From the IMG/VR virus record IMGVR_UViG_3300037200_000120, positions 34,893-98,892 of that record: a stretch of DNA of 64,000 bases; one strand, given 5' to 3'. The notes under the pieces were generated by a model. The model saw only the letters and a list, made by a program, of their open reading frames with translations, searched no databases and was not told where the DNA came from. The stretch comes from a virus. This document shows, one piece after another, positions 15 through 64,000 of this stretch (its first letter is position 1; each line of letters starts with the position of its first letter). The position numbers and the translations under genes were made by a program.

Positions 15-500
15 TCATTTGAAATACACCGCAGTCCAAGTCCCCGTCGAGGCGACTTGGTTTATGAGGGAGAAGCTGGAAAGGACGGTCGCCCCTTGCT
101 CGAAAAGACAACTCCCCGACAGCAGCGGCGTGCCGACAGTCGGTGCAACTCCTGTCGTCGGCGTGCCGTTCGTGGAGTCGACGAAATTGAACGCGCCCCC
201 GATTGCGCAGACGCGGACGTAGAGAGCTCCGGATGGGATGGTCAGTGTGGTCGCTGACGTGGCTGTCTGGTTGTATTGACCGCCGGCCATTGCCGTGAAC
301 GGATACGGGACGGCGTAGGCATAGGTCGGCGTGCCTGAACTTCCCGCCGGCCCCGTGCAAGGCCCCCCGCCCGTAGGGCAACCTCCCAAAGGCACGACGC
401 TAGGCACGATCGTTCCCCCGCTGTCCTTATACGTCTGCCCCATCGCCGGCAGCATCAACCACGCGAGCGCGAGCGCCGCGAGAAGCGGTTTGCGAAGCAT
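15..500 (-). CDS. Hypothetical exported/virion-associated protein with signal peptide
   Basis: Likely start MLRKPLLAALALAWLMLPAMGQ (basic N-region, hydrophobic core); G/T/S-rich mature part. Confidence 0.55.
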   Translation of the reverse strand: MLRKPLLAALALAWLMLPAMGQTYKDSGGTIVPSVVPLGGCPTGGGPCTGPAGSSGTPTYAYAVPYPFTAMAGGQYNQTATSATTLTIPSGALYVRVCAIGGAFNFVDSTNGTPTTGVAPTVGTPLLSGSCLFEQGATVLSSFSLINQVASTGTWTAVYFK

Positions 501-529
501 TGTCAGAGCCTTTCGGGGGAGATTGTTTC

Positions 530-1579
530 CTAGGATACCGGATAAATGCATTCGAATATCACCTGAGCCCCTGTCAGCGTTACGTTAGTTACCTGGCCCG
601 CGTTAGTGAAAAACTTCGCCGTCGTGGAGGCCTGTACGGGTAGAAGGTACAGTGCCCCAGCCAACGAGGCATAGGATATCTGACACTGCTGTGCATAGGG
701 CGCATTCGCAACCGTCAAGGGAAAACCGCCAATGATCGCGTTCGACGCGCTGGCCGTCGACGGGTAGGTTAACTGCGCGTAGGCGAACACCATGTTGCCG
801 AGACGGGTGTAGCCCGCCGAGACGCCCGTGAAAGTCAGGCTGGCTCCGCTGGCATCGGTCGGCGTCCACGATCCCGGGCTTACCGTTTGATTTGAGATCG
901 CCCCGACTGTCGTCGAGAGCGACCCCGCCGTGTTCGTAACGTCGCCTGTCAATGCCGGGAATTGTGCCGCCTGAAGCGTTCCGGTCAGCGACGACGCTGC
1001 CGGAGTGATCGTCGCCGAACTGACGGCCGTAAGCTGACCAGCCGCGTTGTAGGTGATGATTGGGGCGACCGTCGCGGACCCTGTCGGGCCGCCTGCCGAA
1101 ATGACGCCGCCGAGCGGGACGGTGGACGACGACGTCCCCGTGGGAATCTGAGCAATCGGCACCGTGCCGGAGTTGACCTCGGAGCCCGCGATCGACTTAT
1201 TGGTCAGCGTCTGCGCGTCCGTCGTCCCGACGATCGCGCCTGCGGGAAGGCCTTTGCCGCCGTCCTGGATTGTTTGACCTGTTGTCCCGCTGAACGTCGC
1301 CACGTCGCCGTTCGTCGATGATACGGGGCCAGCAATACATGGTCCACTGCCCGGTCCGAGCACTCCAGAGGCGAACGCGGCGCAAGCCGTGCCGGCCCCG
1401 GTGACGGCCAGATCTCCGGTCCCGAATGTTTGCAGCGCGAGCCAGTTGTAGGCGATCCCGATAATCGCAGGGAGCAGCGGGATCGCGGGCGAATCCTGTT
1501 GCGCCGACGCAGCCGACGCGAAGATGAACAGCCACGCCGCGAGCAGCGCGCGGGCGAGTATGCTCGCCGATCTCATCAT
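530..1579 (-). CDS. Tail fibre-like protein with signal peptide
   Basis: Start MMRSASILARALLAAWLFIFASAASAQQ overlaps the upstream stop (ATGA); TDAQTLTNK fibre-type motif; C-terminal GSWTPT...YTRLGNMVF domain typical of tail fibres. Confidence 0.65.
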   Translation of the reverse strand: MMRSASILARALLAAWLFIFASAASAQQDSPAIPLLPAIIGIAYNWLALQTFGTGDLAVTGAGTACAAFASGVLGPGSGPCIAGPVSSTNGDVATFSGTTGQTIQDGGKGLPAGAIVGTTDAQTLTNKSIAGSEVNSGTVPIAQIPTGTSSSTVPLGGVISAGGPTGSATVAPIITYNAAGQLTAVSSATITPAASSLTGTLQAAQFPALTGDVTNTAGSLSTTVGAISNQTVSPGSWTPTDASGASLTFTGVSAGYTRLGNMVFAYAQLTYPSTASASNAIIGGFPLTVANAPYAQQCQISYASLAGALYLLPVQASTTAKFFTNAGQVTNVTLTGAQVIFECIYPVS

Positions 1580-4524
1580 GGCAACATCCCTTGCGTGCCG
1601 GAAACCGAGGCTGTCGGGGGAGTGACGTTGCCGGCGTTGACCGGGAACAGCCTCCTTGCGAAGATTCCGCAATCGGTCTCTATTTCGATTGTGAACATTT
1701 GCCCTGGATTGTTGTTTGTGGCATGAAATATCCATAGGCCGCTGAGCACGCGGCCGACCGGCAGATACGAAGACCCCCCGCCGCCAACCGTTATGCCGTC
1801 GGAGCCAGTCTTTCCTGCGAAAGACCCCTGCGTTATGACACGCTGGCCGCCCGTGCCTATCTGTAGGGTAACGATCGTCCCGCCGCTGTCGGCGGCATAG
1901 TTCGAGGCTGAGTTGTAGGTAGGGAAGGTAAGCTGAATTGTCGCCGAACTGTTGCTCCCCAACTGGGTCGGCGTCACCGTGATTTTTGTAATGCTTCCGT
2001 ACAGCTCTGCGGTGAATTCATTGACGGCCGCATAATTCCCGGCAAACTCATAAATCCGGTATTCCCAGAACTTCTTGCCCTTCTTGTAGGCGTACGATGC
2101 GCTGCGGACTCGGTCGCTTTCGGTGCAGTCGATGAAATCGTAACCCGCGTCCGCGAACGTCGCCATATTCGCTTTCAGCGGGAACGAAAAACCAGTCGTC
2201 CCGCCGATATTCCCGCTCGAGGCGGACATGACATCGCCTGTGAGATAGCCGCCGGAGCCAAAGTTTGTAATGCTGACGCCGGCCACGCCGCCGCCGGCGC
2301 CCACCGTAATGGTGGCAATCATCCCGGACCCGGAGCCGCCTGTCAGCGCGACGCTGGTATAGGAGCCCGGCGTGCCGCCCGACCCTCCCGTCAAGGTTCC
2401 AGGCAGCAGCGTCCATTGCGGAACCGTCACGTAGCCCGACAGCGACGTGGTGACATAGAGATAGGTCGAATCTTCGGTCACGCTGAGAATGACGCCGGTC
2501 CCCGCATCGCCGACGAAGACGCCGCTCGGACCAAACAGGGTGAGCGTCTGCCCGGGAACCGCGCCGAACAGACCCGCCCCGGTGCCTGCGGATTTCAGGA
2601 CGCTGAATATCCCGTTGGCGAAACTGAGGTTCGTACCGTCGATCGATCTCGTGACGATCGCGTCGAGCAGCGTCACTGAAAATTGCGTATTGAAGATGCG
2701 ACAGGCGTTGAAAATCGCCTCGCTGCGAAAGCCGGCGCCACCCGTTGCGGTGAGCTGGCCGATGTCGCAATTGCGTGCGTAGAAGGTCTTGCACGCCCCG
2801 AGTTGCAGCGTGCCGCTGACCTTGTAGTCGGCCAGGCTGACCCGATCCTGCGAAGCGCTCGCAAAGACCAGCGACGTTCCGCTCAGGTATTCTCCGCCAC
2901 GATACTCGACGGAGCCGAGCAGCTTGTCGGTTTCGGCCACCTGTAAATTTTTGGGGTCCTCGTGAATGACATGGTCTGACATCGTCTCCGAGAAACCGAC
3001 GCCCTTGAAATTGACGGTTTTGATCCGCCGCAAGGCCATGTAAAACCAATATTGGACGGCGTAAAGCGGACAGCCGACAAAGAGGTCGTAGTATTCGTGA
3101 TCGCAATCCCACTCGACGGTCGTAAAAGTGACCGAGGTTGGGGTCGGCGCCTGAACATTGCCTAGATTGAGAGTGTAGGTGTACGGCCCCGTCGTCGTTG
3201 CCCACACGCGGCCCTTCCCGCAGGGAGTGAATCCGGCTCCAGCCGCGGCCCAATCCGGGAAGTCGGGGCGATGCTGATAGCGGATCGTCTGGTCGGTGGT
3301 CGCGATGGCCGTTGCCGCGAGCGTGCCGCCGGAAAGGGTCAGCGAGCCTAGGCCTGGGGTCGCCGCCAGATTGATGACCGTTCCCGCCGATGCGATCGAG
3401 GAGATTGCCCAGCTTCCATTGACGCTCCCGCCGGTTATCCCGCTGACGGTGACGAAAATCCCGTTCAGCGAAACGCCGACGCCAGCGCCGAACGGAGCGG
3501 AGGCGAAGGTCAGCGATAGGACGCCGGTCGACGACGTGTAGGTTGCCGTCGCCGCGAGCGTGCCGGCGTACGAGTTGACTGCAGTGACGAGCACATATTC
3601 GTGCTGCTGAACATTGATCGGAAAACCGCCATATTGGATGTCGAGCGAGCCCAGCATGTACCAACTGCCAGCCGTGACATTGGTGTAGTCAGAGGCGGTT
3701 ACGAACGAAAATCCCTTCGCCCCGACCGTTGTTTGTTGGATGAACCAGTTTTGACCGACGGATGCTGCGTTGAATAGCGGAAGAGACAGCGCCCCAAACG
3801 GGTTCTGATAGTACGCATTGCCGCCGCTTATGCCTGCATTATAAATGTTCTGCCAGAGCGTGCCGTTACTATACCAGCGCAGATACGAAATATTGAATAG
3901 GAATCCCTGGCACTTGGAATGGTCGAAACAATAGGCGTTCCCCGTCGTCGGCTGCGCCTCGACGATAACCTGAATGCCGAGCGAGCTCTGATAGCGCGCC
4001 CATGTCGCCCAATTGTTCAGCGCCGTCGAATTGTCGGTGCCTGGATTGACGATGGTCGGGATGCCGAATGGAATGGCCTGCGTGACGACGCCGTCGCCGA
4101 GCGCGCCGAACCAGTTGATGAATTCCGGGCCGAAATATTGCCGGACCCAACAACCCGAAGCCCCGCTCGTATCTGCGGAAGGCGCAATATTTATGCCCTG
4201 GCCGGGATCATTGGCGACCGCCGTGGACATATTTGAGTATGTCCAGGCGAAGTACCCAGCCCGACCGCTCGGAGATCCAAGATAACATGTCGCCCCCGCC
4301 GCCGGCGCGGCATTGCCGACGATCGGAAGCGCCTGCATCTGAGCGATGCTGGCGACCGTGAACGAATATTGCGGGGTTGCGGCGGAGGCTAATTTGGTTG
4401 CGCCCAGTCCCGCTACGCCGAAGCCGAGCAGCCCCAGCAGCGAGCGGCGATCCTTCGCGGAGTCGAGCGGAGCTCGCGGTTCGGGATCGGGACGTGGCGC
4501 TTTCTTCCTCCATACAAAGCTCAT
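1576..4524 (-). CDS. Tailspike/depolymerase-like protein with twin-arginine (Tat-like) leader
   Basis: 982 aa; DRRSLLGLLGFG leader; INWFGALGDG...TDNSTALN motif typical of the start of beta-helix tailspikes. Confidence 0.7.
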   Translation of the reverse strand: MSFVWRKKAPRPDPEPRAPLDSAKDRRSLLGLLGFGVAGLGATKLASAATPQYSFTVASIAQMQALPIVGNAAPAAGATCYLGSPSGRAGYFAWTYSNMSTAVANDPGQGINIAPSADTSGASGCWVRQYFGPEFINWFGALGDGVVTQAIPFGIPTIVNPGTDNSTALNNWATWARYQSSLGIQVIVEAQPTTGNAYCFDHSKCQGFLFNISYLRWYSNGTLWQNIYNAGISGGNAYYQNPFGALSLPLFNAASVGQNWFIQQTTVGAKGFSFVTASDYTNVTAGSWYMLGSLDIQYGGFPINVQQHEYVLVTAVNSYAGTLAATATYTSSTGVLSLTFASAPFGAGVGVSLNGIFVTVSGITGGSVNGSWAISSIASAGTVINLAATPGLGSLTLSGGTLAATAIATTDQTIRYQHRPDFPDWAAAGAGFTPCGKGRVWATTTGPYTYTLNLGNVQAPTPTSVTFTTVEWDCDHEYYDLFVGCPLYAVQYWFYMALRRIKTVNFKGVGFSETMSDHVIHEDPKNLQVAETDKLLGSVEYRGGEYLSGTSLVFASASQDRVSLADYKVSGTLQLGACKTFYARNCDIGQLTATGGAGFRSEAIFNACRIFNTQFSVTLLDAIVTRSIDGTNLSFANGIFSVLKSAGTGAGLFGAVPGQTLTLFGPSGVFVGDAGTGVILSVTEDSTYLYVTTSLSGYVTVPQWTLLPGTLTGGSGGTPGSYTSVALTGGSGSGMIATITVGAGGGVAGVSITNFGSGGYLTGDVMSASSGNIGGTTGFSFPLKANMATFADAGYDFIDCTESDRVRSASYAYKKGKKFWEYRIYEFAGNYAAVNEFTAELYGSITKITVTPTQLGSNSSATIQLTFPTYNSASNYAADSGGTIVTLQIGTGGQRVITQGSFAGKTGSDGITVGGGGSSYLPVGRVLSGLWIFHATNNNPGQMFTIEIETDCGIFARRLFPVNAGNVTPPTASVSGTQGMLP

Positions 4525-4546
4525 TGGCGCGCCTCAGTTATGGTGG

Positions 4547-4942
4547 TCATGGCGCACATGCCACGAGGTAAACTAAGCCGAACCCGGTTACGTAGGCTGG
4601 GATAAAAAGCCCAGTCGTCAAGTTGGAGCAGGGGGAATTGCCAAAAGTCTGCGTCCCAAGCCCAGTCGTCGATGAGGGCATTACGAGCGATCCGGATATC
4701 GTCACGACTCCCGTGAACGTCGGGGAATCCAAGGGAGCGCCCCATGTCGAAAATACGCTGACGTCAGTGTTCCAAAGAGCTTGTTGATCTGCTCCTGTGA
4801 TCAACCCGAGATGGTTGGTCCAGGGCAATGCGTTGACTTGCGACTGCAGCGTACTCGGCGGCGTCGATGTCGCTAGCGCCGGCGCCGACAGGCTTACCGA
4901 GCACAGCGCCGCAATCGCGCCGATCGCGCGTTTCAGGATCAT
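4547..4942 (-). CDS. Small tail-associated protein with signal peptide
   Basis: MILKRAIGAIAALCSVSLSAPALA leader; APLDSPTFTG fibre-repeat motif. Confidence 0.55.
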   Translation of the reverse strand: MILKRAIGAIAALCSVSLSAPALATSTPPSTLQSQVNALPWTNHLGLITGADQQALWNTDVSVFSTWGAPLDSPTFTGVVTISGSLVMPSSTTGLGTQTFGNSPCSNLTTGLFIPAYVTGFGLVYLVACAP

Positions 4943-4971
4943 TCCGAAAATCCTTTGCTCAACCGACGTGG

Positions 4972-5511
4972 TTACGGCGTTTTCTTCTTCGTCACCGGAT
5001 CGAGCGCGGCCAGCACGCTCGGCGCGAGCGTGGCGACCTTCAGTTCTTCCCGGGTAAGTAGCGTGATGACGATCTTGAAAGGCTTTTTCATGAGATCGTC
5101 AGAATAGTCGCCGACAGCGAGATCCCACTTTTTCTGCTGGTTTTTCATTTCTGGCGTAGGATCAACTCCCGACGATGGAGTCGGCCGATCCCCGATGTTT
5201 CGCATGAACGCCTTCGCCTTGGCCTGTTCGTCGTCGATAATGACCTTGAACGCGATTTCATCGTCGGCAATAGCCTCTCGCGTCGGTTCGGCAAAATCGT
5301 AGGGCTGCGGAACGGCTCTCGATTTGCCCCCTTCCTCGATGATTTTCTGATAGCCGTCGAGGGCCGCGAGGCCTTGATAGGCGGACACAATTTGGGCGTA
5401 GGTCAGTTCCGTCGACTTGTCGGGGACCATGGGCGAGGGAGTCGCGGCCTGCGCGAACGCAAGCGCGGGGAGAGCGCAGCACAATGCAGCGGCGATGACG
5501 ATCTTCTTCAT
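4972..5511 (-). CDS. Hypothetical protein with signal peptide (possible fibre accessory/chaperone)
   Basis: Start MKKIVIAAALCCALPALAFAQA at 5511; charged helical mature region. Confidence 0.55.
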   Translation of the reverse strand: MKKIVIAAALCCALPALAFAQAATPSPMVPDKSTELTYAQIVSAYQGLAALDGYQKIIEEGGKSRAVPQPYDFAEPTREAIADDEIAFKVIIDDEQAKAKAFMRNIGDRPTPSSGVDPTPEMKNQQKKWDLAVGDYSDDLMKKPFKIVITLLTREELKVATLAPSVLAALDPVTKKKTP

Positions 5512-5555
5512 TTCTTCAAGATATCCCTTCTTCTTCGCGAAATCGCTAGCAACTA

Positions 5556-7898
5556 TCAGTAAAACGGCACATACCGGAGAAACCCATTCACCCTGATCTG
5601 CATACACGCCGTCGCAGAGCCACCGCCGCAACCGGACGCATTGCCCGTAGATGTTCCGCCGATGCTGATTTGATTGGTCGTGTCGGTCGGCGCGGGATTT
5701 CCGCCAAACACCGCTCCTCCGTAAAGATTGGATACGCCCGCGACGCTGAGCGCGAACGCGCCGCTCGCCGATATTGTCAGGTCCCCGCTGTTGTCGGTCG
5801 TAAATCCGGGCATGCAGAGCACGCATCCGGTGAAGTTGACCGCCGTAGCGACGATGCCGTTGACGAAATTTCCGCCTGAACTCGTGCCAAAGGTGATGCC
5901 GTTGTCTACCGTTACCTGATTGTTTATTCCGAGCGCCAGCAGCCTCGAGATATGAACGCCCGGGTCTGGCGATCCATTCGTCCCGCCGTTGATCGCGACG
6001 CCGATGCGCTGTCCGTTCGAGTCGGTCCCGGAACCCGCGTTGGAGTAAACGTCAATTTCTGCGGCTTGAATAGGCGAAGTCGGGTTTACGACATTTGTTT
6101 GATCTATGGCTTGTACGTAAAGGCCCATAGCCCAAGCCATCGACGTCCCTGGGGCTTGCCCGTTCAGGATTTTGATTGCGCTTGCCGACACGCCAATCCC
6201 GAGCAATCCCGTCGAGGCCAAAGTCCCGACATATGTGATGGAACTGACGCCGTATTCGCTGCCCGTCTCGTGGAGACCCGTGCTAGTCTGGAAATAGGCA
6301 ACGTCGTAGACGGTGCTGCCTCCCGACGCCGGAGCTATCCTGAGCACCTGGAGAGGGGTGTAGCTGGCGGCATAGTTCGTAGGGGCCGAATATATTTCCC
6401 AACCGCAAGTGACGAGCGTGGAGCAACCGCTCATATCCAGGCCAGGGCTGCCGGCGCCAGCAACGTTGTTGGACAGACCCGGAAGTCCGGGCGTCGCGAA
6501 AGAATATGGTGCAGTTACTAGTCCGTTGGCGTTTGCGGTCAGGACCGTCGCACCGTTGGCGAACGACAGGGAGAAGCTGTTCGAGTTCGATCCCAAACTG
6601 ACGAAATTGTACACGAGTTGTACGAGATTGTTGCTGCCTGTTCCCGTGATGCCTAGCCCGAGATATACTGGATGCCCGCCCCCGAGCGTCGGGTCCAGAA
6701 AACTTGCGATCAGCTCCCCGCCGGCCGCCCCGGCGCTGATTGTCTGTGGAGCGGAGAATATATTGTTGATATTGTCTTCAGTGATCGTTCCCGAATTCGC
6801 CGGAAGGATGGCGAGCGACGTCCCGAGCGCACCCGTCGCCGGTTGAAGCGCGACATATCCGCTGGTCAGATTTTCGAAAACCAAGTTGCCGGTCTCCGAC
6901 CCGGCGATGCCAAGCGTCACTTCGCCGCCGGGAACAACGACGCTCGTCGCCGTCGATAGCGTTACTGGCCCGACTTGGGCCGAGATCGTGAGGCCCCCGG
7001 TCAAGCCGGTATCGGATTGAACGTATCCGGTCGGCGTTGCGCCGCCATTGGCGTAAAGATAGGAGTTGCAAAAGCTGCACCCGCTCAGGGCCGCAGTGAA
7101 TATCGCCCGCGTGGAGCCATTCGAACTGGTTCCGGAATTCTGGGCCTGGAAATTATTTTCAAACCCCGTATTGGCGGAGGTCCAAATAGTGTTCTCATTC
7201 CCCCCTGTCGCGAATGCCCCGCCGACGCCGGCGGGAATGGTCGTCGTGAGCCCGGGGACGCCGCCGGCGGAGGTCGCCAGGATGCTATTCGCCGTGGTCG
7301 TCAGCGGCGAAATCGTATTGCCGCCCACCGCATAGAAGCCTAGATTGTTGGCGAGACCGGTCGCGACCGTCCCACTGCCGCCACCGCCTCCGCCGCAAGC
7401 CCCGCCGGAATCGATCAGGCCGCCGCTGCCGTCGATCTGCGGGCAATGGCCGGATACGAGCGCTCCATCGGCCGTGAGGAAGGCATGTGTGTTGCCGGAG
7501 ATCGTCCCCGCCGTGACCGCGCCTGAGCCGTTGCCGAGCAGGGGACCGCTGAGGCCGGAAAATACCGCGCCCGTGATCGTCGGACTCTGGATCGTCAGCC
7601 CGATCGGAAGCGTGGGCGAGCAAAAAGTCGGGCCGGCGCCGGCGCCCTGAACGAGGCCGGTGCAGGGGAAGATCGGCATTTGAAGGAAGACGTTGACGTC
7701 AGCCTGCGTCGCCGAACTGGCGATCATATTGCTGGTCAGGGCATTGAGCGACTGAGGGGTGATGGCTCCCGAAACGTTGGGAAAGATCGTACTGTTGTTC
7801 TGAATGAGGAGTTGCGAACGCGTTTCCGAGGTCTGCGCCGAAGCGCCCCCGAGAAGTCCCAGCAGACAGCAAGCCGCGAGAAGCCCGCGACGGAACAT
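5556..7898 (-). CDS. Tail fibre-like protein with signal peptide
   Basis: 780 aa G/S/T-rich; MFRRGLLAACCLLGLLGGASAQ leader; C-terminal IRVNGFLRYVPFY fibre-tip-like ending. Confidence 0.65.
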   Translation of the reverse strand: MFRRGLLAACCLLGLLGGASAQTSETRSQLLIQNNSTIFPNVSGAITPQSLNALTSNMIASSATQADVNVFLQMPIFPCTGLVQGAGAGPTFCSPTLPIGLTIQSPTITGAVFSGLSGPLLGNGSGAVTAGTISGNTHAFLTADGALVSGHCPQIDGSGGLIDSGGACGGGGGGSGTVATGLANNLGFYAVGGNTISPLTTTANSILATSAGGVPGLTTTIPAGVGGAFATGGNENTIWTSANTGFENNFQAQNSGTSSNGSTRAIFTAALSGCSFCNSYLYANGGATPTGYVQSDTGLTGGLTISAQVGPVTLSTATSVVVPGGEVTLGIAGSETGNLVFENLTSGYVALQPATGALGTSLAILPANSGTITEDNINNIFSAPQTISAGAAGGELIASFLDPTLGGGHPVYLGLGITGTGSNNLVQLVYNFVSLGSNSNSFSLSFANGATVLTANANGLVTAPYSFATPGLPGLSNNVAGAGSPGLDMSGCSTLVTCGWEIYSAPTNYAASYTPLQVLRIAPASGGSTVYDVAYFQTSTGLHETGSEYGVSSITYVGTLASTGLLGIGVSASAIKILNGQAPGTSMAWAMGLYVQAIDQTNVVNPTSPIQAAEIDVYSNAGSGTDSNGQRIGVAINGGTNGSPDPGVHISRLLALGINNQVTVDNGITFGTSSGGNFVNGIVATAVNFTGCVLCMPGFTTDNSGDLTISASGAFALSVAGVSNLYGGAVFGGNPAPTDTTNQISIGGTSTGNASGCGGGSATACMQIRVNGFLRYVPFY

Positions 7899-8320
7899 CA
7901 GCGAACCGCCTTGTGGAATGGGAATCCAACCACGATCTCGGAACGGTCCCTGTCGTTGATGACGCCGACGGGATCGCCGATGATTTTCGAAAGCGCATCC
8001 GCAATGGCGTGGGAAGCGGGGGTATCCGGGCTCAGCCAGATCCCCTCGTGGCCATCGAGCGCGGCTTCCTCGACGGCGGAACCTCCCTTTTCTCGGATCG
8101 CATCGGCCAAGAGATATGGGAAGGCTCCGGAGCCAGGCCCCGCGAGAACGCGATATCCCGTCTTTTCGAACGGAATTGCGCTCAACGCAACCGGATCGGC
8201 GTGATAAACGGCCGAGACCTGATCGACCGACGGCTTGCCCGACAGACCAAACATGACGCCCGCCAAGGCAATCGCAGCCAGCCCATGCAGCCCGTAATGA
8301 ACCGGATCATGGTTATCCAT
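7898..8320 (-). CDS. Hypothetical membrane-anchored protein
   Basis: N-terminal hydrophobic segment; abuts flanking genes. Confidence 0.5.
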   Translation of the reverse strand: MDNHDPVHYGLHGLAAIALAGVMFGLSGKPSVDQVSAVYHADPVALSAIPFEKTGYRVLAGPGSGAFPYLLADAIREKGGSAVEEAALDGHEGIWLSPDTPASHAIADALSKIIGDPVGVINDRDRSEIVVGFPFHKAVR

Positions 8321-8325
8321 TTATT

Positions 8326-9759
8326 TCATCCCCTCACTGCGACGCTCAACGAAGTCCGGCTCCCCTGCGACCCGCCGCCGGACCATACCGGCGCTCCCGC
8401 GCTGGTAAGTCCTAGCAATGTGGCGTAGTGAAAACCCTCAGCCAGACCGCCGAACGCCCGAGAAACTACGGTCGCCATGAACTGGTTTGCGCCTGTCACC
8501 GTGCCCTGCGTATAAGCGTCCTGCGGGGTCGACGTACTGTCGATGCTTATCGCCGTCGCGACCGACATGGCCGTATTTGATTCGACGCTTCCGTTGATCT
8601 CTATTTGCGCCGAATCGCCGCTCCAAACAAGGAATTGGCACCTTATCTCGCTATTCACTTCTGCATACGAACCCGACGTTGTCGAGCGTCCGGCCGTGAA
8701 AATGTTGATGGCCGCGAGACCGCTTTTGTTGAACCACGACAAAACAAGCTGATTGGCCCCGGAATAGCCCAGGACAGGCCCGGAAGTCGGATACACCATG
8801 CCAACAAGCGAATAGGCGTTGTCGCCGGTCATGATTTCTACGCCGACGTTTCCAGCCGTGGTATCGGTCGCGTGCGCCGTGGTCGAAAAATTCAGCGTCA
8901 GGACGCCGGCGAGCATAAAGGCATAGACGTAATACAGCGTGCTCGCGGTCAAAGCCGTGGCCGCAACCCCATTGACGTACGTGCTGGTTATCGTGGCTGC
9001 GACGCCGCCGGATGGAACGGGATAATCGACCCCTGCGATGGTGAGATAAGCCCCGCCTTTCGGGACGAGAGCTACTGCGGTGGTGCTCGTGGCCGCAAAA
9101 TGGACTTGGCCGAAATTCAGCCCCAACAGCCCCGCCGCAGCGCCGGTAGTCGAAGCCTGGAGGGCCGGCCCGATAGCCGGGCTAATTCCCAACGGGGAAG
9201 TCAACTGGAAACCGCCCGCATCGCTGTTCAGCGCCGAAAGCCATATGCTGAAATATGTCGTTCCGACCGTGACTTCGCTGCCGGTCAGAACTTGCGGGCC
9301 ATCTGGCCCAGGCTGATAGACCTGAAAGCCGCTGAGCGTCATCGCGCCCGTATTTGTATAGCCCGCCGTCCATTCGAAAATTTGGCCGTTGGAAAACGTC
9401 GAGTAGCCGTTGAGGATTTGCGCGTCTGCGGACCCTGCCGTGGTTCCGGCATTGGTGATACCCGAGATCGCGGCGTCCGCGAAGGGATAGACCGGATCGT
9501 AAGTCCAGATCAGATCGCCGGCCGAATCCTCGAGGACGACTTTATAGACGATCGTAGGGTCGAGGAAGACATTCCCGATATTGCCTGCCGAATCCAGCGG
9601 TAGCGGATTCAGATTGTCGATGGATAGGCCGGAATCCTGATAGGTCGGCGTCGGAGTGCTGGTCCCGGTCAGATAAAAACCGAGCGTACCCCCGAAATAG
9701 GGCAGTCCCGTCGCTTGAATCGGCTGCTGAGAGGGGAGGACAAAACGGCTACCGGACAT
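8326..9759 (-). CDS. Tail fibre/tailspike with virion-attachment (head-binding-type) N-terminal domain
   Basis: GGTLGFYLTGTSTPTPTYQD...NPLPLDSAG...YKVVLEDSAG...IWTYDPV resembles podophage tailspike N-terminal domains; no signal peptide. Confidence 0.7.
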   Translation of the reverse strand: MSGSRFVLPSQQPIQATGLPYFGGTLGFYLTGTSTPTPTYQDSGLSIDNLNPLPLDSAGNIGNVFLDPTIVYKVVLEDSAGDLIWTYDPVYPFADAAISGITNAGTTAGSADAQILNGYSTFSNGQIFEWTAGYTNTGAMTLSGFQVYQPGPDGPQVLTGSEVTVGTTYFSIWLSALNSDAGGFQLTSPLGISPAIGPALQASTTGAAAGLLGLNFGQVHFAATSTTAVALVPKGGAYLTIAGVDYPVPSGGVAATITSTYVNGVAATALTASTLYYVYAFMLAGVLTLNFSTTAHATDTTAGNVGVEIMTGDNAYSLVGMVYPTSGPVLGYSGANQLVLSWFNKSGLAAINIFTAGRSTTSGSYAEVNSEIRCQFLVWSGDSAQIEINGSVESNTAMSVATAISIDSTSTPQDAYTQGTVTGANQFMATVVSRAFGGLAEGFHYATLLGLTSAGAPVWSGGGSQGSRTSLSVAVRG

Positions 9760-18557: not shown

Positions 18558-18871
18558 CCGGTGCGCGAGCCGTTGACGCCGCTTTCTTTAACCCAGAACG
18601 TATTCGTCGATCCGCCCTGATTGTTCGAATAGAAATCGCCTAGATTGCCGGCGATGACGTTTTCGGGGGAACCTACCCCGGAACTCCATTTCTGGCCATT
18701 GCCGAGCGTCACCGTCGAAGTCGTTCCGGCCACGGTTCCGTTCAGCGCGTTCGTGATGTTGGTCAGAAAGCGCAGCCCTTGACCGGTAAGCAGATGCTGG
18801 GCGCCAGTCGCCATGTCTTTGGTCAGAGCGAGCGCGGCATTGGCCGAGGTGACGAGAGGCTTGTTTACCAT
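18542..18871 (-). CDS. Small virion protein (hypothetical)
   Basis: GVGSPENVIAGNLGDFY...FWVKESG...TGW motif seen in phage structural proteins. Confidence 0.55.
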   Translation of the reverse strand: MVNKPLVTSANAALALTKDMATGAQHLLTGQGLRFLTNITNALNGTVAGTTSTVTLGNGQKWSSGVGSPENVIAGNLGDFYSNNQGGSTNTFWVKESGVNGSRTGWVNK

Positions 18872-20550
18872 CAGACTTCTTCGATGTCGGCCGTGGCATA
18901 CGCCGCGATGAATGTCCTGGGAACCGGATCAGACACCACGATCCTAAACCGCCAGTCCCGAGCCGCGCCCAACTTCTTCCAGATCAGGCGCGTCGCATAG
19001 GCCCCGGTCTTCCCCAAACTCATCCAGAGTTGCCTGATGCCATAGGTTCTGCCTTGATCCTTGGAAATCATCAGCATGATTTGAGGGTCCGAGCCCTGCC
19101 CGGTCTGTGGCGCGTCGCCGACTTGCATGTTCAGTTCGAGTTTGGAGATGAAGACCCGCTTCCGGTCTTTGTGAACCGGGGGCGAATCGGCAAACCCGAT
19201 CATCGGCGATCCGAACTCGGTGTAAACCGAGTCGGAGAGGTAGCCGATCTGGCCGGATTGAGAATCCCCGATCAGGGTTTGATTGTTGAACACGACCGAA
19301 CAGTTGCCGCGCCACGCCCCGTCGAACGGCGTCGCGGCGACATACGATGTCCGCTCATGCCAGAGGCTGGTCGCGATGTCCAGTTCCCACGTCGCGTTGT
19401 TGCTGGGAAATTGCACTGCGACGAACTTGTGGCCGTTGAACGTGTAGGAGAACGCATAGGCATCTCCCGTGTTGGCATATTTCTGCCACGCGCCTTCGAT
19501 AGCGTGCGTGCTCATGCGCCTGAGTAAGACGCCGTCGAGGCGGTAGAACACCAGATCGTTGCCGAGAAAGAAAACCCCGTTGTCTTCCTTGACGATCGCC
19601 AGCGCAGCCGCGCAACCACGCTCGATCGTCGCCCCGTCATACCGGGAGAACGGATCGTTGTTCGCCCCGGTATCGTACCAGGTCTCGATCGTCTTCTGTT
19701 TGAAGATCAGAAGATTTTCTTGCTGGTTTACCGTCGCGAGAACGTAACTGGAATCGACGGAGGCCTCGTTGTAATCCAGCGCCGTATAAGTGGTTCCATC
19801 ATTATTGTTGGAGTAAACCCACTGGTTTGTTCCGGTGACGTCGTTGGTAAAATAGGTATCGAAGAATGTCGTCGTGGCTGCATCAGCGAAATTAGGGATC
19901 TGAGAAAACCCGACCGGAGGGCCAGTAAATGTCAGGTTGAAACTGGCCCCAGAACCGACGCCGGTGGTCGCCGCCTGTTCGGCTGGATTTGTGGGTTCGG
20001 TTCCATATTGGCCCGGCGAGTAGATCGTGAACGAAGCCGCAGCCGAGCCGCTGAGTGTGGCGACTTCGAGGATCGCCGGGTTCGTATAGGTTCCCCCGGC
20101 GACCGTGATCTGATCGCCGATCGCATAGTCCGAGCCGGAAGACCCGCCGACCGGCGTCGCGGCCGAGACATTGAACACGGAAGTCGGAGCATAGATCCAA
20201 CCGGCGACGCCGTTGACGATCTGGACTTGCGTTCCGTTGTTGGCCATCGAAACCGGGCCGAACCCGGCGATGCCAGAGCCCAACTCCGTCACCGTGTCGG
20301 CGACGGTCACGCTGTAGAGCGACTGTCCCGACACGAGGTAGAGGACGTTGTTCATGACGCTGAAGCCGCGGATCGGGCCGTTGCCCACCGTGACCAAAGT
20401 AATGATCCCAGGAGAGGCAATCACAGCGATGTCGGTTTTGGCGTCAGGCGGCTCTTTCTCGGCGTAGAGATTGACACAGCGTTGCGAGGATACCGGGAGG
20501 GAGTCGAGTTTGTACGATTGTGTCGACCATTGGATACGGAGCGGTTCCAT
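18871..20550 (-). CDS. Packaged DNA stabilization/tail hub protein (P22 gp10-like)
   Basis: SQRCVNLY, GPIRG, IERGCAA, TWELDIATSLWHER, SKDQGRTYG...LGKTGAY motifs. Confidence 0.85.
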   Translation of the reverse strand: MEPLRIQWSTQSYKLDSLPVSSQRCVNLYAEKEPPDAKTDIAVIASPGIITLVTVGNGPIRGFSVMNNVLYLVSGQSLYSVTVADTVTELGSGIAGFGPVSMANNGTQVQIVNGVAGWIYAPTSVFNVSAATPVGGSSGSDYAIGDQITVAGGTYTNPAILEVATLSGSAAASFTIYSPGQYGTEPTNPAEQAATTGVGSGASFNLTFTGPPVGFSQIPNFADAATTTFFDTYFTNDVTGTNQWVYSNNNDGTTYTALDYNEASVDSSYVLATVNQQENLLIFKQKTIETWYDTGANNDPFSRYDGATIERGCAAALAIVKEDNGVFFLGNDLVFYRLDGVLLRRMSTHAIEGAWQKYANTGDAYAFSYTFNGHKFVAVQFPSNNATWELDIATSLWHERTSYVAATPFDGAWRGNCSVVFNNQTLIGDSQSGQIGYLSDSVYTEFGSPMIGFADSPPVHKDRKRVFISKLELNMQVGDAPQTGQGSDPQIMLMISKDQGRTYGIRQLWMSLGKTGAYATRLIWKKLGAARDWRFRIVVSDPVPRTFIAAYATADIEEV

Positions 20551-31817: not shown

Positions 31818-32123
31818 TCATTTCGGAAAATTCGCCACAAAGAGTTTCGTCAGATCGCCGGGATGAAACGCGTTCGACGGTATATCCTCGACACGCTTGC
31901 CGTCGGCCAAGAGATACGGCGGCGGCTCGAATTCGCTGACGCCACAGCCAGGAATGGCTCGGAGAATCGCGGCGCCGAACTTGTCGCGATCGATCTCCAT
32001 CACGATCTTGAGGCCGTTGCCGTCGGTCGCGGTCGACTGGATAGCGGCGATCATGGCGTCCAACGCGGACATGAACGGCTTTTCTCGGATAACGATCATG
32101 TCGGGACCAATTCGTTTGTTCAT
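31818..32123 (-). CDS. Hypothetical protein
   Basis: Start overlaps the portal stop codon. Confidence 0.4.
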   Translation of the reverse strand: MNKRIGPDMIVIREKPFMSALDAMIAAIQSTATDGNGLKIVMEIDRDKFGAAILRAIPGCGVSEFEPPPYLLADGKRVEDIPSNAFHPGDLTKLFVANFPK

Positions 32124-34423
32124 GGAGTAACCGCGCCTTGAGCCTGGGGCGCAGCGCCGGGCTGGCCCGTCGAGGCGTCGATCTCCGCGCTGGGATCGTT
32201 CGCCGCCGCGGTTCCGGCAAGCCCGGCGTTGGCTTGGGCATCCATCGCCGTCTTGATCACGTCCAACTGATGCGTGGCCCAGGCCACGTCACTCTGCCCG
32301 ACAGCCTTATCCGCATTGGCCAGGGCCAGAATAGCCTGAGCCCGGAAGTTCAACGCCTTGGCCTGTTCGGATTCGATCAGCGCGGCGTCGTGACGCTCCC
32401 TGAGCTGAAGCCCAGCTTCTTTTTCGGCCTGCTGCATATCCACGGTTTGCTTCTTGATCAGCAGTTCCTGCATCTTCGCCACGATCGCAGGATTCGGCGG
32501 CGGGTTCGCGGTAAAGAGATCGTCGATGTTTTCGATTTGCGCCGCTTCGAGATTGCGGCGGACCAGCTTCTTCTGATCGAATAGCGGATTGCCTTCGTAT
32601 TGTTTGAGAAACCCGGCGCGGCCGAGTTTCTGCATATCCGTGACCATCGTCGGATCGGAGACCGGCTCGACGCCAGAGCCCCTCTCGTAATCCGCACGGG
32701 TGATCTTGCGCCAGTCAGATCCGACCTTGTATTCGGTGTCCTGGTCGAGATAGAGCCGGTTCAAGCGATAGAGCTTGGCGAGCTCCGCTTTGAGCGAGCG
32801 ATGAACCCGCTTGTAGATCGCAGTGAACGTCTTCAACCCCTGTTCGACCATCGCGAGCATCGTCGTGGCAGGCGTATTGGCTGGCATCGCTTCGCCGGTT
32901 AGGACATCCTTGACCCCTGCCACTTCCTTGCCAGCTTCGATCAAGAGGCCGAGCAGCTTGAACAGCACTTCATTCGGGCCCGGAGCCGGGAGCGGCACCA
33001 GTGAATCCCGAACCGATTGGCCAGGCGAGTTGACCGGCTTCCACTCGCCGGGCTGAAACCGGATCTGGCCGGAATTCATCGACAAGCCCTTGCCGATGAA
33101 CCCGCCGCCGACCACGGCGAGATGACCGGCATCGATCATCATGTTGAGCGTCGTGTTGATCGAGGCGTTCAGCGACTTCAATAGTTGCCCGAAGCCAAGA
33201 CCGTATATACCGCCTTCCGTGTTCGGAAGGAAGTTGTAAATCGTGTAATAGTGAACCGGATCGATCTTTTGAATCCGGCCCTTGGTGAAGTTGTACTTTA
33301 TTCCGTCCAACTCGAACCGGGCCACAATCCTGACGACTTTTTGTGATTCCTGGTGAACGGTGACGATATACGGTTCAGGATAGCCGTCATCATCCATATC
33401 ATACCAACGATGCTGCTCCAAGAACAGAATAGGAGCATCAGTATCGCCGTCTTGACCCGTCTGCGGATACGTGATTTCCAGCCAAGTGCCGGCAAGTTCC
33501 TTCTCCTTGATTTCCAAGGGATAGAACGTGATAAGTTCCGTAAGGCGAGGCGCAATTTCCAGCGCTCTGGCCTTGTAATTGATGCAGAGGTCTTTGGCCT
33601 GCACCATCAGGCTCGAATTACGATCCTTGTCGGCGTCGAAGAACGACTTCCGGAACACGCACCCCACGATCGGGAGGATATGCAGGAGTTGATCGGTTTC
33701 CGGCTCCCATTCCGGTTGCTCGTCGAGGAGCTGCCAGGACATGTGTTCGCCGACGCGATCGGCTCGGGTTTGTTTGTAGCCGGGAACCTGGGGCGTGCCG
33801 TCCTTGCCGACCATCCATTGTGACGGGTCGTTGGGATCGGCTTGTAGCGGAGGACCGCCGTTGTGACCTATGCCGGGAGGCGCCGGCGCTTGACCGGGAG
33901 GAGCGCCGGGTTGTGGCGGCTGCTGTTGCGCTTTGGCCGCAGCGGCGGCGGCCACCGCTTGCGGATTGGGAACGCCGTCGTCGGACCCGATGACGACGCC
34001 TTTGACGACTTCCTTCCCGGCGATGATAGCGGGATAGGCGCGAGCCGCGAACTGAATCGCCGCGGTCGTCATCAACGGGAAGATCACGGCCGATGCTTTC
34101 GGCCATGGGTACGACTTCGGCTCCGCTTGCTGCATCGCAAGCTTCATCGCTTCCTCAGACTTGTCCAGCCATTCGGAGCGCGAGTTTTCGTCGATGTCGT
34201 ATTCTCGGCAGACCAGGGCGCCGATCTTGATCAGTTCGTTATCGTCGGGGCCATCGGCTTCCAGCGCGATATTGTTGGAATTGGCCCAGCGATGGAGGCG
34301 TTCGAGGACTTCGGGCTCAGGCGGCTTCAGCGAGGCAAGCTTCGGCGAGCCGTCAGGCGCTATCGGGTTGTCGTCGTCAGTGTCCGCGTCGCCGAGATCG
34401 GCGAGGCCCGAGAGATCGTTCAC
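32120..34423 (-). CDS. Portal protein (P22-like)
   Basis: 767 aa; SRSEW...PWPKAS...TAAIQFAARAY; YGLGFG; NMMIDAG; downstream of terminase. Confidence 0.9.
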   Translation of the reverse strand: MNDLSGLADLGDADTDDDNPIAPDGSPKLASLKPPEPEVLERLHRWANSNNIALEADGPDDNELIKIGALVCREYDIDENSRSEWLDKSEEAMKLAMQQAEPKSYPWPKASAVIFPLMTTAAIQFAARAYPAIIAGKEVVKGVVIGSDDGVPNPQAVAAAAAAKAQQQPPQPGAPPGQAPAPPGIGHNGGPPLQADPNDPSQWMVGKDGTPQVPGYKQTRADRVGEHMSWQLLDEQPEWEPETDQLLHILPIVGCVFRKSFFDADKDRNSSLMVQAKDLCINYKARALEIAPRLTELITFYPLEIKEKELAGTWLEITYPQTGQDGDTDAPILFLEQHRWYDMDDDGYPEPYIVTVHQESQKVVRIVARFELDGIKYNFTKGRIQKIDPVHYYTIYNFLPNTEGGIYGLGFGQLLKSLNASINTTLNMMIDAGHLAVVGGGFIGKGLSMNSGQIRFQPGEWKPVNSPGQSVRDSLVPLPAPGPNEVLFKLLGLLIEAGKEVAGVKDVLTGEAMPANTPATTMLAMVEQGLKTFTAIYKRVHRSLKAELAKLYRLNRLYLDQDTEYKVGSDWRKITRADYERGSGVEPVSDPTMVTDMQKLGRAGFLKQYEGNPLFDQKKLVRRNLEAAQIENIDDLFTANPPPNPAIVAKMQELLIKKQTVDMQQAEKEAGLQLRERHDAALIESEQAKALNFRAQAILALANADKAVGQSDVAWATHQLDVIKTAMDAQANAGLAGTAAANDPSAEIDASTGQPGAAPQAQGAVTP

Positions 34424-34881: not shown

Positions 34882-35103
34882 TCAATGCAGCTTCCCCGCT
34901 TCCGCGCGCTCTTCGTCCGTCACTTCGGCCGCAATCCATTTCCCACCCGGGAATGGCCCGGCGACAACACGCAGACATTTGCGGACGCTGACGAATTCCG
35001 CGTCGTCGTCGCCATCAAAAAAATAGTTGGTGATTGGCGCGGTTTCCGAACCGCGCTTGACGACACCGTCGAGAAGATCGACCGAAACCTCGCGTTCGCT
35101 CAT
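34882..35103 (-). CDS. Hypothetical protein
   Basis: Start overlaps the upstream stop (ATGA). Confidence 0.45.
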   Translation of the reverse strand: MSEREVSVDLLDGVVKRGSETAPITNYFFDGDDDAEFVSVRKCLRVVAGPFPGGKWIAAEVTDEERAEAGKLH

Positions 35104-44474: not shown

Positions 44475-44912
44475 TCACCACAATTCGAAGCCATGCATTT
44501 TCTGAAACGCCGTCCGCAACACATTCCGCTTTGCGATCGTCGCTGCTTGCTTGGTGGCCCGCTCGACCTCGCGCTCGCGCTGGATTCGAAGCTTCGTCGC
44601 CAGGCTGAACGAACGGTTGACCGCCAAATCAGGATCGAGCCGATTGACGTCGCGAGCCTGTTCCCGGATTCGATCGGTCACGAACGCAGGAAGCGCGTTC
44701 ACGGCGAGATAGCCCACCATCTTTTGCGCAATCGCCCCTTCGTCGGCGATCGATGCAGGCGCCGCGCTCAATTCGCTGACGCCCGAACTGACGCCATAGC
44801 CGAACAGGCTCGAGACGCCGCCGCGAAGCCCGCTAGCTTGCTCTGCGGAGCCCGCGATGATCGCCGCTGGCCCCAGTCCCAAAGCCCGAAGGAATGTTCG
44901 TCTACCGAGCAA
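44475..44912 (-). CDS. Hypothetical protein with twin-arginine-like N-terminus
   Basis: GRRTFLRALGLGPAA. Confidence 0.5.
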   Translation of the reverse strand: MLGRRTFLRALGLGPAAIIAGSAEQASGLRGGVSSLFGYGVSSGVSELSAAPASIADEGAIAQKMVGYLAVNALPAFVTDRIREQARDVNRLDPDLAVNRSFSLATKLRIQREREVERATKQAATIAKRNVLRTAFQKMHGFELW

Positions 44913-63818: not shown

Positions 63819-64000
63819 GTGAACTCAGACAAGATTTTCATCCTCGTGAACGACCGCAGCACTTCACTGGCGCAACTCGCCGCGATGGATAAGCAGACAA
63901 TCAAATACCTCTGCGCGAGCGGTTGCACCGCCCTGACGGCGATCGACGCGCCTGCGGCCGAAACCCTCGACGCGAGCGGTTGCACCGCCCTGACGGCGAT
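63819..64000 (+). CDS. Leucine-rich-repeat protein (partial, runs off the window)
   Basis: RBS AAGGAG, GTG start; 57-nt period encoding LxASGCTALTAIDAPAAET. Confidence 0.6.
   Translation, partial: MNSDKIFILVNDRSTSLAQLAAMDKQTIKYLCASGCTALTAIDAPAAETLDASGCTALTA

Follow-up and report, generated by a model that had tools for sequence, protein, structure and literature searches.

Seven consecutive genes on the minus strand of an uncultured phage, referred to here as A to G, each start with an export-type leader, and the sequences indicate that their products very probably fold outside the cytoplasm. The phage is represented by a single 98,892-bp virus record of peat metagenome origin (IMG/VR record IMGVR_UViG_3300037200_000120), and the window, i.e., the whole stretch that was analyzed, comprises its last 64 kb (64,000 nucleotides, record positions 34,893 to 98,892). 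In the standard account of tailed phages, every stage of particle assembly takes place in the cytoplasm, and a stage outside it is not foreseen.

A preliminary description of the window had claimed six consecutive leader-bearing genes between positions 15 and 7898, with leaders of the general secretory (Sec) or twin-arginine translocation (Tat) type. The six quoted leaders were all confirmed in the sequence, but the count was short by one, as G starts at window position 18 and extends beyond the window start. Six of the seven leaders, including that of G, are predicted to be Sec-type and that of D is predicted to be Tat-like, although D matches none of the curated Tat models searched. The seven genes are listed below with window coordinates unless stated otherwise; a slash marks the predicted cut.

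A, 5556-7898, minus strand: 780 aa; predicted Sec-type leader ending GGASA/Q; Gly/Ser/Thr-rich, fiber-like body
B, 4972-5511, minus strand: 179 aa; leader ending ALAFA/Q; charged mature part (28% charged residues) without Cys
C, 4547-4942, minus strand: 131 aa; leader ending APALA/T; mature part of 107 aa with 2 Cys
D, 1576-4524, minus strand: 982 aa; predicted Tat-type leader ending LASA/A; 12 Cys
E, 530-1579, minus strand: 349 aa; leader ending SAASA/Q; shaft repeats and a C-terminal head of ~120 aa
F, 15-500, minus strand: 161 aa; leader ending LPAMG/Q; beta-rich mature part of 140 aa with 4 Cys
G, from position 18 (ATG at 18-16; genome 34910-33342, or L015:7342-8910 in a fetched locus of the same record), minus strand: 522 aa, start overlapping the stop of F; leader ending ICMA/Q

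Leaders and their start codons

The leaders were called on refined gene starts with a home-made rule that combines a basic n-region, an uncharged h-region and small residues at -3 and -1. In each of the seven, an uncharged h-region of about 10-15 residues is preceded by a basic n-region and followed by a small-x-small site, with predicted cuts at ASA/Q (A), AFA/Q (B), ALA/T (C), LASA/A (D), ASA/Q (E), AMG/Q (F) and CMA/Q (G). The leaders of A, B, C, E, F and G are thereby predicted to be Sec-type leaders cut by signal peptidase I. Under a strict form of the rule, in which a leader has to be accompanied by a Shine-Dalgarno (SD)-like motif, the hits among the 141 other called genes of the record numbered 8, and several of these lie at internal starts that are implausible; the probability of seven leaders in a row by chance is about 1e-7 (order of magnitude).

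The leader of D stands apart, with an n-region of 26 residues, a DRRSLLG motif after 24 residues, a Lys (TK) in the c-region before LASA/A, and a Gly-rich h-region with a mean Kyte-Doolittle value of 1.97, the lowest of the set, compared with 2.2-2.8 for the other leaders. Textbook Tat traits are thus present, and this leader is predicted to be twin-arginine-like. It did not match the Tat models PF10518 (Pfam, E 0.01) or TIGR01409 (NCBIfam, E 0.1), which only weakens the call, since such short models overlook many true Tat leaders; the relatives of D are too few for a conservation comparison of its leader. Far from the tail module, a 145-aa open reading frame (ORF) at window positions 44475-44912 (minus strand), beginning MLGRRTFLRALGLGPAAIIAGSAE, has a near-textbook twin-arginine motif and may encode a second Tat substrate of the phage.

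Gln occupies the predicted +1 position in five of the seven leaders. In the families of E and G, discussed below, the h-region is likewise followed by Gln as the first polar residue in 45 of 77 and 58 of 109 leaders, respectively, and many further leaders of both families read A-[HNRE]-A/Q. A +1 Gln recalls the Q-rule of Bacteroidetes, to which Matrishin et al. (2023) refer, and may be a hint on the hosts or on an N-terminal pyroglutamate.

Every leader ATG has an SD-like motif (AGG/GGA-type) just upstream or overlaps the preceding stop codon; such overlaps occur between A and the gene upstream of it, g140 (TGATG), between D and E (ATGA), and between F and G (ATGA). For B, E and F, longer ORF versions run into the gene ahead, which makes the leader ATG the reasonable choice of start. 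The preliminary description had named true starts downstream of the leaders as a result that would speak against its claim. No alternative start codon lies near the predicted cut in A, B, C, D or E, and the in-frame Met that F and G have 2-3 residues ahead of the cut is not preceded by an SD-like motif. Downstream or dual starts were rejected as a general explanation on these grounds.

Evidence for export

The leaders of A to G are very probably functional, to judge from sequence features, and the proteins would be exported late in infection, cut by signal peptidase I and furnished with disulfides in the periplasm, with G passing through the further steps described below. Four independent lines say yes to leader use, i.e., conservation of the leader as a feature, the cysteines, a particular cysteine pair in the family of E, and the topology of G.

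The preliminary description had suggested leader conservation among homologues as a check, and the result speaks for the leaders. Taking the genes in the loci of relatives as simple ORF picks, five of the six partial relatives of A carry leaders of their own, as do 107 of 116 full-length relatives of G (from a family of more than 140 relatives). The cysteines of A are arranged as six close pairs; among them is the module SGHC..IDxSG..D.G..CGGGGGGSGTV, which was found in 13 IMG/VR loci corresponding to nine distinct proteins, seven of these nine with leaders. Among the relatives of A, E and G, the leader is conserved as a feature and not as a sequence, and it persists in hundreds of diverged relatives.

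The mature parts of A to G contain 12, 0, 2, 12, 4, 4 and 8 Cys, respectively, all even numbers and mostly close pairs, in agreement with the earlier remark that several mature parts have paired Cys. Cysteine density in these mature parts is 1.47 per 100 aa, about four times the value of 0.36 obtained for 15 structural-region proteins that lack a leader. Such density and parity, along with a cysteine pair that tracks the leader in the family of E, make no sense in a reducing cytoplasm and thus argue for an oxidizing compartment.

This pair is one of two in E, which has four cysteines (66/81 and 299/344). The head of E (residues 230-349) was modeled by AlphaFold2 (AF2) with a predicted local distance difference test (pLDDT) score of ~97, and the model resembles the fold of viral receptor-binding heads, with Foldseek matches (prob 0.9-1.0) to the Det7 tailspike, AP22 gp53, the reovirus sigma-C/sigma-1 heads and the receptor-binding protein heads of lactococcal phages. 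The head family comprises 3359 representative clusters. Among the best 150 of these 3359, which include 77 proteins with a leader and 64 without, a pair aligned to C299/C344 is found in 57 of the 77 leader proteins versus 1 of the 64 leaderless ones (Fisher p 5e-21, with sequences counted as independent of kinship, which could inflate the association). Most leaderless members have 0 or 1 Cys, and the family includes leaderless proteins that start with the fiber N-domain also present in the leaderless fiber of this phage (described below). When the nearest leaderless and leader-bearing members at 45-60% identity were paired, the cysteine pair was present in the leader partner only in 23 of 35 cases. 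A tree-based sign test of the link between leader and cysteine pair, which corrects for kinship, was underpowered, with five supported pairs, about two in the same direction and none in the opposite one.

G has a beta-rich body, 8 Cys, an intramolecular chaperone (ICA)/S74-like domain with Ser404 and Lys409, then a 21-residue membrane helix and a terminal RRRKP. Residues 400-510 were predicted by AF2 with pLDDT >90, and a further beta-rich domain lies at residues 60-142. Foldseek likeness covers the last 120 residues ahead of the helix, with matches to the ICA of MyRF (7dc3, prob 1.00, template modeling (TM) score 0.60-0.65), the endosialidase chaperone (3gw6, prob 0.93-0.98) and 3gud (prob 0.99). 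G further matched the tail fiber of PDB 8jov (E 0.0035), its SLEELK aligning with SDERLK of 8jov, and gave a profile match to a long tail fiber distal subunit (6f45, E 1.4e-5). Ser404 and Lys409 are five residues apart (SDxxxK-type), and both are nearly invariant across 83 relatives, as are C385 and C401. G itself has no match to Pfam PF13884 at E 0.01, and about half of its relatives carry this domain. G is a divergent member of the peptidase S74/ICA family and an ICA-chaperoned fiber or spike.

A leader combined with a C-terminal stop-transfer helix and a basic tail is the signature of an N-out, C-in protein, which would place the body of G in the periplasm. Since the ICA domain directly precedes the membrane helix, the trimer would come off the membrane once the domain has cut itself. 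Helix and basic tail are common to 16 relatives of G. Relatives without the helix (P0169, P0175, P0177, P0178, P0230, P0238 and others) often have a hydrophobic C-x6-C tail instead, for example CQASWKCRIFG or HKCFFGLLVC, and this tail may be another membrane-association device that is removed along with the chaperone. No signal that would direct a protein beyond the periplasm was found in A to G when lipobox, type IX secretion system (T9SS), autotransporter and, for the tail of G, PEP-CTERM-like models were searched.

The view that the mature parts mostly look like fibers or spikes does not extend to B, although it holds for A, D, E, F and G. None of A to F matches Pfam, PHROGs or NCBIfam, C and B included. 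A is fiber-like by its composition, its repeated cysteine module and its viral neighbors; its nearest Atlas clusters are viral and unnamed (a lead only). D is probably a beta-helix spike or depolymerase, with a weak Atlas structure likeness to P22-type tailspikes and the K1 capsule depolymerase (TM 0.37-0.55, a lead only). F is weakly similar to the middle of E (E 1e-7). B has no relatives in any fetched locus and could, as a guess, be a periplasmic accessory protein or chaperone.

D is also a near-orphan, and its relatives have in common with it only a Gly-rich domain of ~100 aa (residues 685-790, window 2155-2470). The same domain is inserted in gp10-type head-closure proteins of two unrelated podophages (L013:2175-2468 and L010:2383-2676) and is found in a flagellar hook protein of Polynucleobacter; it is a mobile decoration domain.

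The operon and the possible fates of the leader-bearing proteins

The minus strand of the window holds a P22/SU10-like podovirus structural module, to which the following features belong or are adjacent.

Portal, 32120-34423, minus strand, with the adaptor next in the module
gp10-type head-closure protein, 18871-20550, minus strand (phrog_578, E 5e-98)
Three ejection-type proteins, minus strand, in the structural module, one of them with a tail lysozyme domain
Leaderless tail fiber, 8326-9759, minus strand: 477 aa, 1 Cys, occupying the tailspike slot that follows the ejection proteins
g140, 7898-8320, minus strand: 140 aa, acidic N-tip MDNHDPVHY, a 17-residue hydrophobic stretch followed by Lys, no Cys

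The leaderless fiber is followed by g140, A to G, a short non-coding stretch and an endolysin (an Amidase_2 plus PG_binding_1 protein). The preliminary description was right in that the fiber lacks a leader and has a virion-attachment domain: phrog_26190 matches its residues 22-97, and the first ~90 aa form a fiber N-domain that shares 32% identity with the domains behind the leaders of fibers in the fetched loci L013 and L010. A myophage fiber in L001 is a relative of the C-terminal half. g140 may be anchored in the membrane N-out, leaving its body in the cytoplasm; it has no relatives and no family matches in Pfam, PHROGs or NCBIfam.

The leader block is co-oriented, with intergenic gaps of 0-44 nt and three overlapping junctions. 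Promoter- and terminator-like sites in it are no commoner than in shuffled sequence, per consensus scans, and its GC content and codon-usage score equal those of the rest of the phage. A to G are predicted to be late genes, several of them translationally coupled to the fiber operon. An assembly chimera was considered and rejected: the whole stretch is contained in one 86.9-kb contig of the peat sample, and the F/E, D/C and B/A junctions are bridged by identical short contigs from a second peat study, so the leader block is not an assembly artifact. As a 57-bp tandem repeat array is present at both ends of the record (genome 1-420 and 98810-98892, the latter being window 63918-64000), circular permutation or terminal redundancy across it is probable for this record.

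We suggest the following pathway for the exported proteins. A to G would cross the inner membrane via Sec or Tat late in infection, signal peptidase I would remove the leaders, and disulfides would form in the periplasm. G would be held at the membrane by its C-terminal helix, trimerize through its intramolecular chaperone domain and cut itself at Ser404, freeing the mature fiber into the periplasm. Meanwhile, the head-tail particle with its leaderless fiber would be assembled in the cytoplasm, and once the holin opens the inner membrane the compartments would mix and the periplasm-matured proteins would dock onto the particle as accessory receptor-binding or depolymerase proteins. We regard this whole chain, docking at lysis included, as quite possible though short of probable. 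Late docking is physically plausible, since P22-type phages add their tailspikes at the end of assembly, a step that is spontaneous in vitro. The size of holin lesions, moreover, allows the periplasm and cytoplasm to mix while the outer membrane is still in place.

Joining the virion is favored by relatives elsewhere that place a leader before virion-docking domains. A leader lies directly ahead of a podovirus fiber N-domain in L010, L012/L013 and P0010. In L013, the gene in question, whose leader has an internal Met, sits in the tailspike slot of a P22-like module, and in the L010 record, which is 86% complete, the leader-bearing gene is the sole gene with a fiber N-domain. In P0245 and P0246, the leader is followed by T4_gp9_10_N, above the Pfam threshold, with P0246 also carrying S74. 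The seven different fiber or spike bodies, moreover, resemble a multi-receptor-binding-protein set. A more general proposition, that some tailed phages have a second, periplasmic branch of virion assembly, represented here by seven accessory proteins beside one cytoplasmic fiber, we consider unlikely but worth raising. In such a branch, receptor-binding fibers and spikes would leave the cytoplasm by Sec or Tat, gain stability from disulfides, in some cases be tethered to the membrane until released by their own chaperone domain, and reach the cytoplasm-built particles only upon the holin breach.

Several observations weigh against virion docking. No recognized docking domain was found in A to G with Pfam, PHROGs or NCBIfam, and a home-made hidden Markov model of the fiber N-domain, which matched the leaderless fiber at E 5e-38, matched none of A to G even at E 10. 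A to G hence depart from the canonical podovirus fiber or tailspike both in having leaders and in that no N-terminal docking domain was found. The leaderless fiber alone could serve the particle, B is not fiber-like, and many leader-bearing members of the E family consist of leader and head only (130-200 aa) and are therefore too short to reach the virion by a shaft. Two distant phage relatives (L016 and L017) have a leaderless fiber directly followed by lysis genes and do without the leader block, which is thus accessory. Finally, exported phage-fiber-like proteins are proven cell-surface adhesins in the case of the Bdellovibrio MAT fibers.

Many of these points fit a somewhat doubtful but tenable alternative, namely that A to G are exported, do not become part of the virion, and act on the envelope of infected or neighboring cells. 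They might bind or cut receptor polysaccharide in the periplasm, which would exclude superinfection and keep progeny from sticking to debris, or they might be displayed as adhesins. Such a role accords with the missing docking domain, the absence of the block from L016 and L017, the very short leader-and-head proteins common in the E family, and the MAT adhesins, as well as with the weak depolymerase- and tailspike-like leads for D and a Cor-like lipoprotein nearby (E 0.006). The slot between fiber and lysis genes also houses phage exclusion genes, which we count on the same side. However, the junctions overlap and the scans gave no promoter signal specific to the block, which is part of the late operon; A to G would therefore be made minutes before lysis, late for exclusion. 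Seven different fiber or spike bodies also fit a receptor-binding set better than an exclusion device, no signal beyond the periplasm was found in the searches listed above, and the leaders ahead of virion-docking domains in relatives speak for the particle. The preliminary description had offered both fates for proteins folded outside the cytoplasm. Folding there is strongly, if indirectly, supported by the conserved leaders, the paired Cys, the leader-tracking pair and the topology of G, whereas between virion and host surface the evidence is divided: the relatives with leader and docking domain favor the virion, and the envelope is kept because A to G have no such domain and distant relatives lack the block.

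It is improbable that the leaders are not used for export at all, with the proteins folding in the cytoplasm after a downstream start, a transient membrane tether or some bypass. Cytoplasmic folding is the textbook expectation for tailed phages, and F and G do have an in-frame Met before the cut, as the L013 fiber has one inside its leader. Nevertheless, the SD-like motifs and stop/start overlaps are at the leader ATGs and not downstream, A to E lack a start codon near the cut, hundreds of diverged relatives keep the leader feature, and the cysteine density, parity and leader-tracking pair are at odds with a reducing cytoplasm; the C-terminal helix and RRRKP of G, in turn, fit an N-out, C-in topology.

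We consider it very improbable that the block is captured host cargo, a bacterial adhesin cassette (moron) serving a lysogen and unrelated to infection: it is accessory, resembles the bacterial MAT adhesins in architecture and lies in a genome with transposases and an IrrE/ImmA-type peptidase, as is typical of temperate or mosaic phages, but no integrase was found among ten early-region proteins scanned, promoter- and terminator-like sites in it were no commoner than in shuffled sequence, its GC content and codon-usage score are those of the phage, pattern scans of 185,579 species genomes returned no relative of G or of the leaderless fiber, and the placeable relatives of A, E and G are in viral contigs beside tail or lysis genes.

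Elsewhere, runs of two to three consecutive leader genes end tail modules at L004:7854-11593, L014:6958-11587, L013:8711-13155 and L018:8114-12117, those of L013 and L018 directly preceding lysis genes; leader-gene runs are thus not peculiar to this phage. Close relatives of the whole block were not found in the data searched. In 50,697 deposited phage records, megablast matched nothing in the first 10 kb of the window, and tblastn returned no match for A or G and one weak match for E. Two loci fetched via the endolysin (L026 and L027) were set aside as unrelated Mu-like phages, the endolysin being the sole gene in common.

Comparison with known systems and other genes of the record

A limited full-text literature search returned no description of leader-bearing tail fibers in tailed phages. 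All members of the E-head and G families come from soil, peat and freshwater sequence of uncultured origin, and this may be why such proteins have not been described earlier. Several different fiber or spike genes closing the tail operon after one anchoring fiber, as seen here, are known from CBA120, G7C and PhiK64-1. To our knowledge, such sets and the P22 tailspike have no leaders, few Cys and recognizable docking domains, and all are assembled in the cytoplasm. Signal-peptide/signal-arrest-release (SAR) endolysins, spanins and Cor/Llp-type exclusion lipoproteins are phage Sec substrates too, but with roles in lysis or exclusion.

The nearest described architecture is that of the MAT (mosaic adhesive trimer) fibers of Bdellovibrio bacteriovorus, which have a signal peptide and a trimeric phage-fiber-like body with a beta-helix and are exported and displayed on the surface as adhesins that catch prey (Caulton et al. 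2024, PMC10769870). They have a conserved, beta-rich N-domain of ~130 aa straight after the signal peptide, and at the other end they carry either a self-cleaving S74 domain (S..K dyad) or a binding tip that varies (PMC10769870). G, with its S74-type ending, and E, with its binding-head ending, both behind a signal peptide and fiber body, are similar. In contrast, MAT genes are located in a predator chromosome, whereas A to G are late genes of a tailed phage between fiber and endolysin, and G, unlike the MAT fibers, adds a membrane helix after the chaperone domain. We have not filed the block as MAT.

For G, there is a second likeness, to MyRF (7dc3), which shares the ICA fold, the Ser/Lys pair and the membrane helix directly after the domain. 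In animal cells, MyRF releases a transcription factor to the cytosol, whereas G would free a fiber into the bacterial periplasm. The ICA of MyRF descends from phage intramolecular chaperones (K1F endosialidase, 3gw6; T5 L-shaped fiber, 4uw8), and the phage chaperones solved so far, unlike G, come from leaderless cytoplasmic fibers without a membrane helix.

In Porphyromonas phages, signal peptides whose removal exposes an N-terminal Gln have been described on capsid proteins, spanins and unnamed genes, with no tail fiber or spike named (Matrishin et al. 2023, PMC10367356). The leaders here are alike in this respect, as five of the seven would expose an N-terminal Gln. What is added here is the Tat-type member (as predicted), the design of G with leader, ICA and membrane helix, the family-wide link of the leader with a specific cysteine pair, and the contrast of one leaderless docking fiber with seven exported proteins within one operon.

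If the outermost host-recognition proteins of a sizeable group of environmental phages are indeed exported and folded oxidatively, host-range prediction would go wrong for them, as would annotation pipelines in which "secreted" proteins are dropped from the virion gene set, recombinant fibers and depolymerases would need periplasmic or oxidizing expression, and lysis timing would become part of assembly. If the envelope role is true, A to G would be a new class of late-expressed, fiber-derived envelope effectors.

Other envelope-directed proteins are encoded near the lysis region of the record, namely a 204-aa protein with a strong Sec leader (L015:2164-2778, minus strand, genome 28164-28778), an 83-aa lipoprotein with the lipobox LSGC and a weak match to Cor exclusion proteins (L015:5149-5400, plus strand, genome 31149-31400), and a 65-aa single-helix protein (L015:5397-5594, plus strand, genome 31397-31594). 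The early region contains two TnpB (Cas12f-like TNB) genes and an IS1595-type transposase (L024:12218-13348, minus strand; L025:1979-3052, plus strand; L025:7990-8577, plus strand), and it also holds RecT and the IrrE/ImmA-type peptidase.

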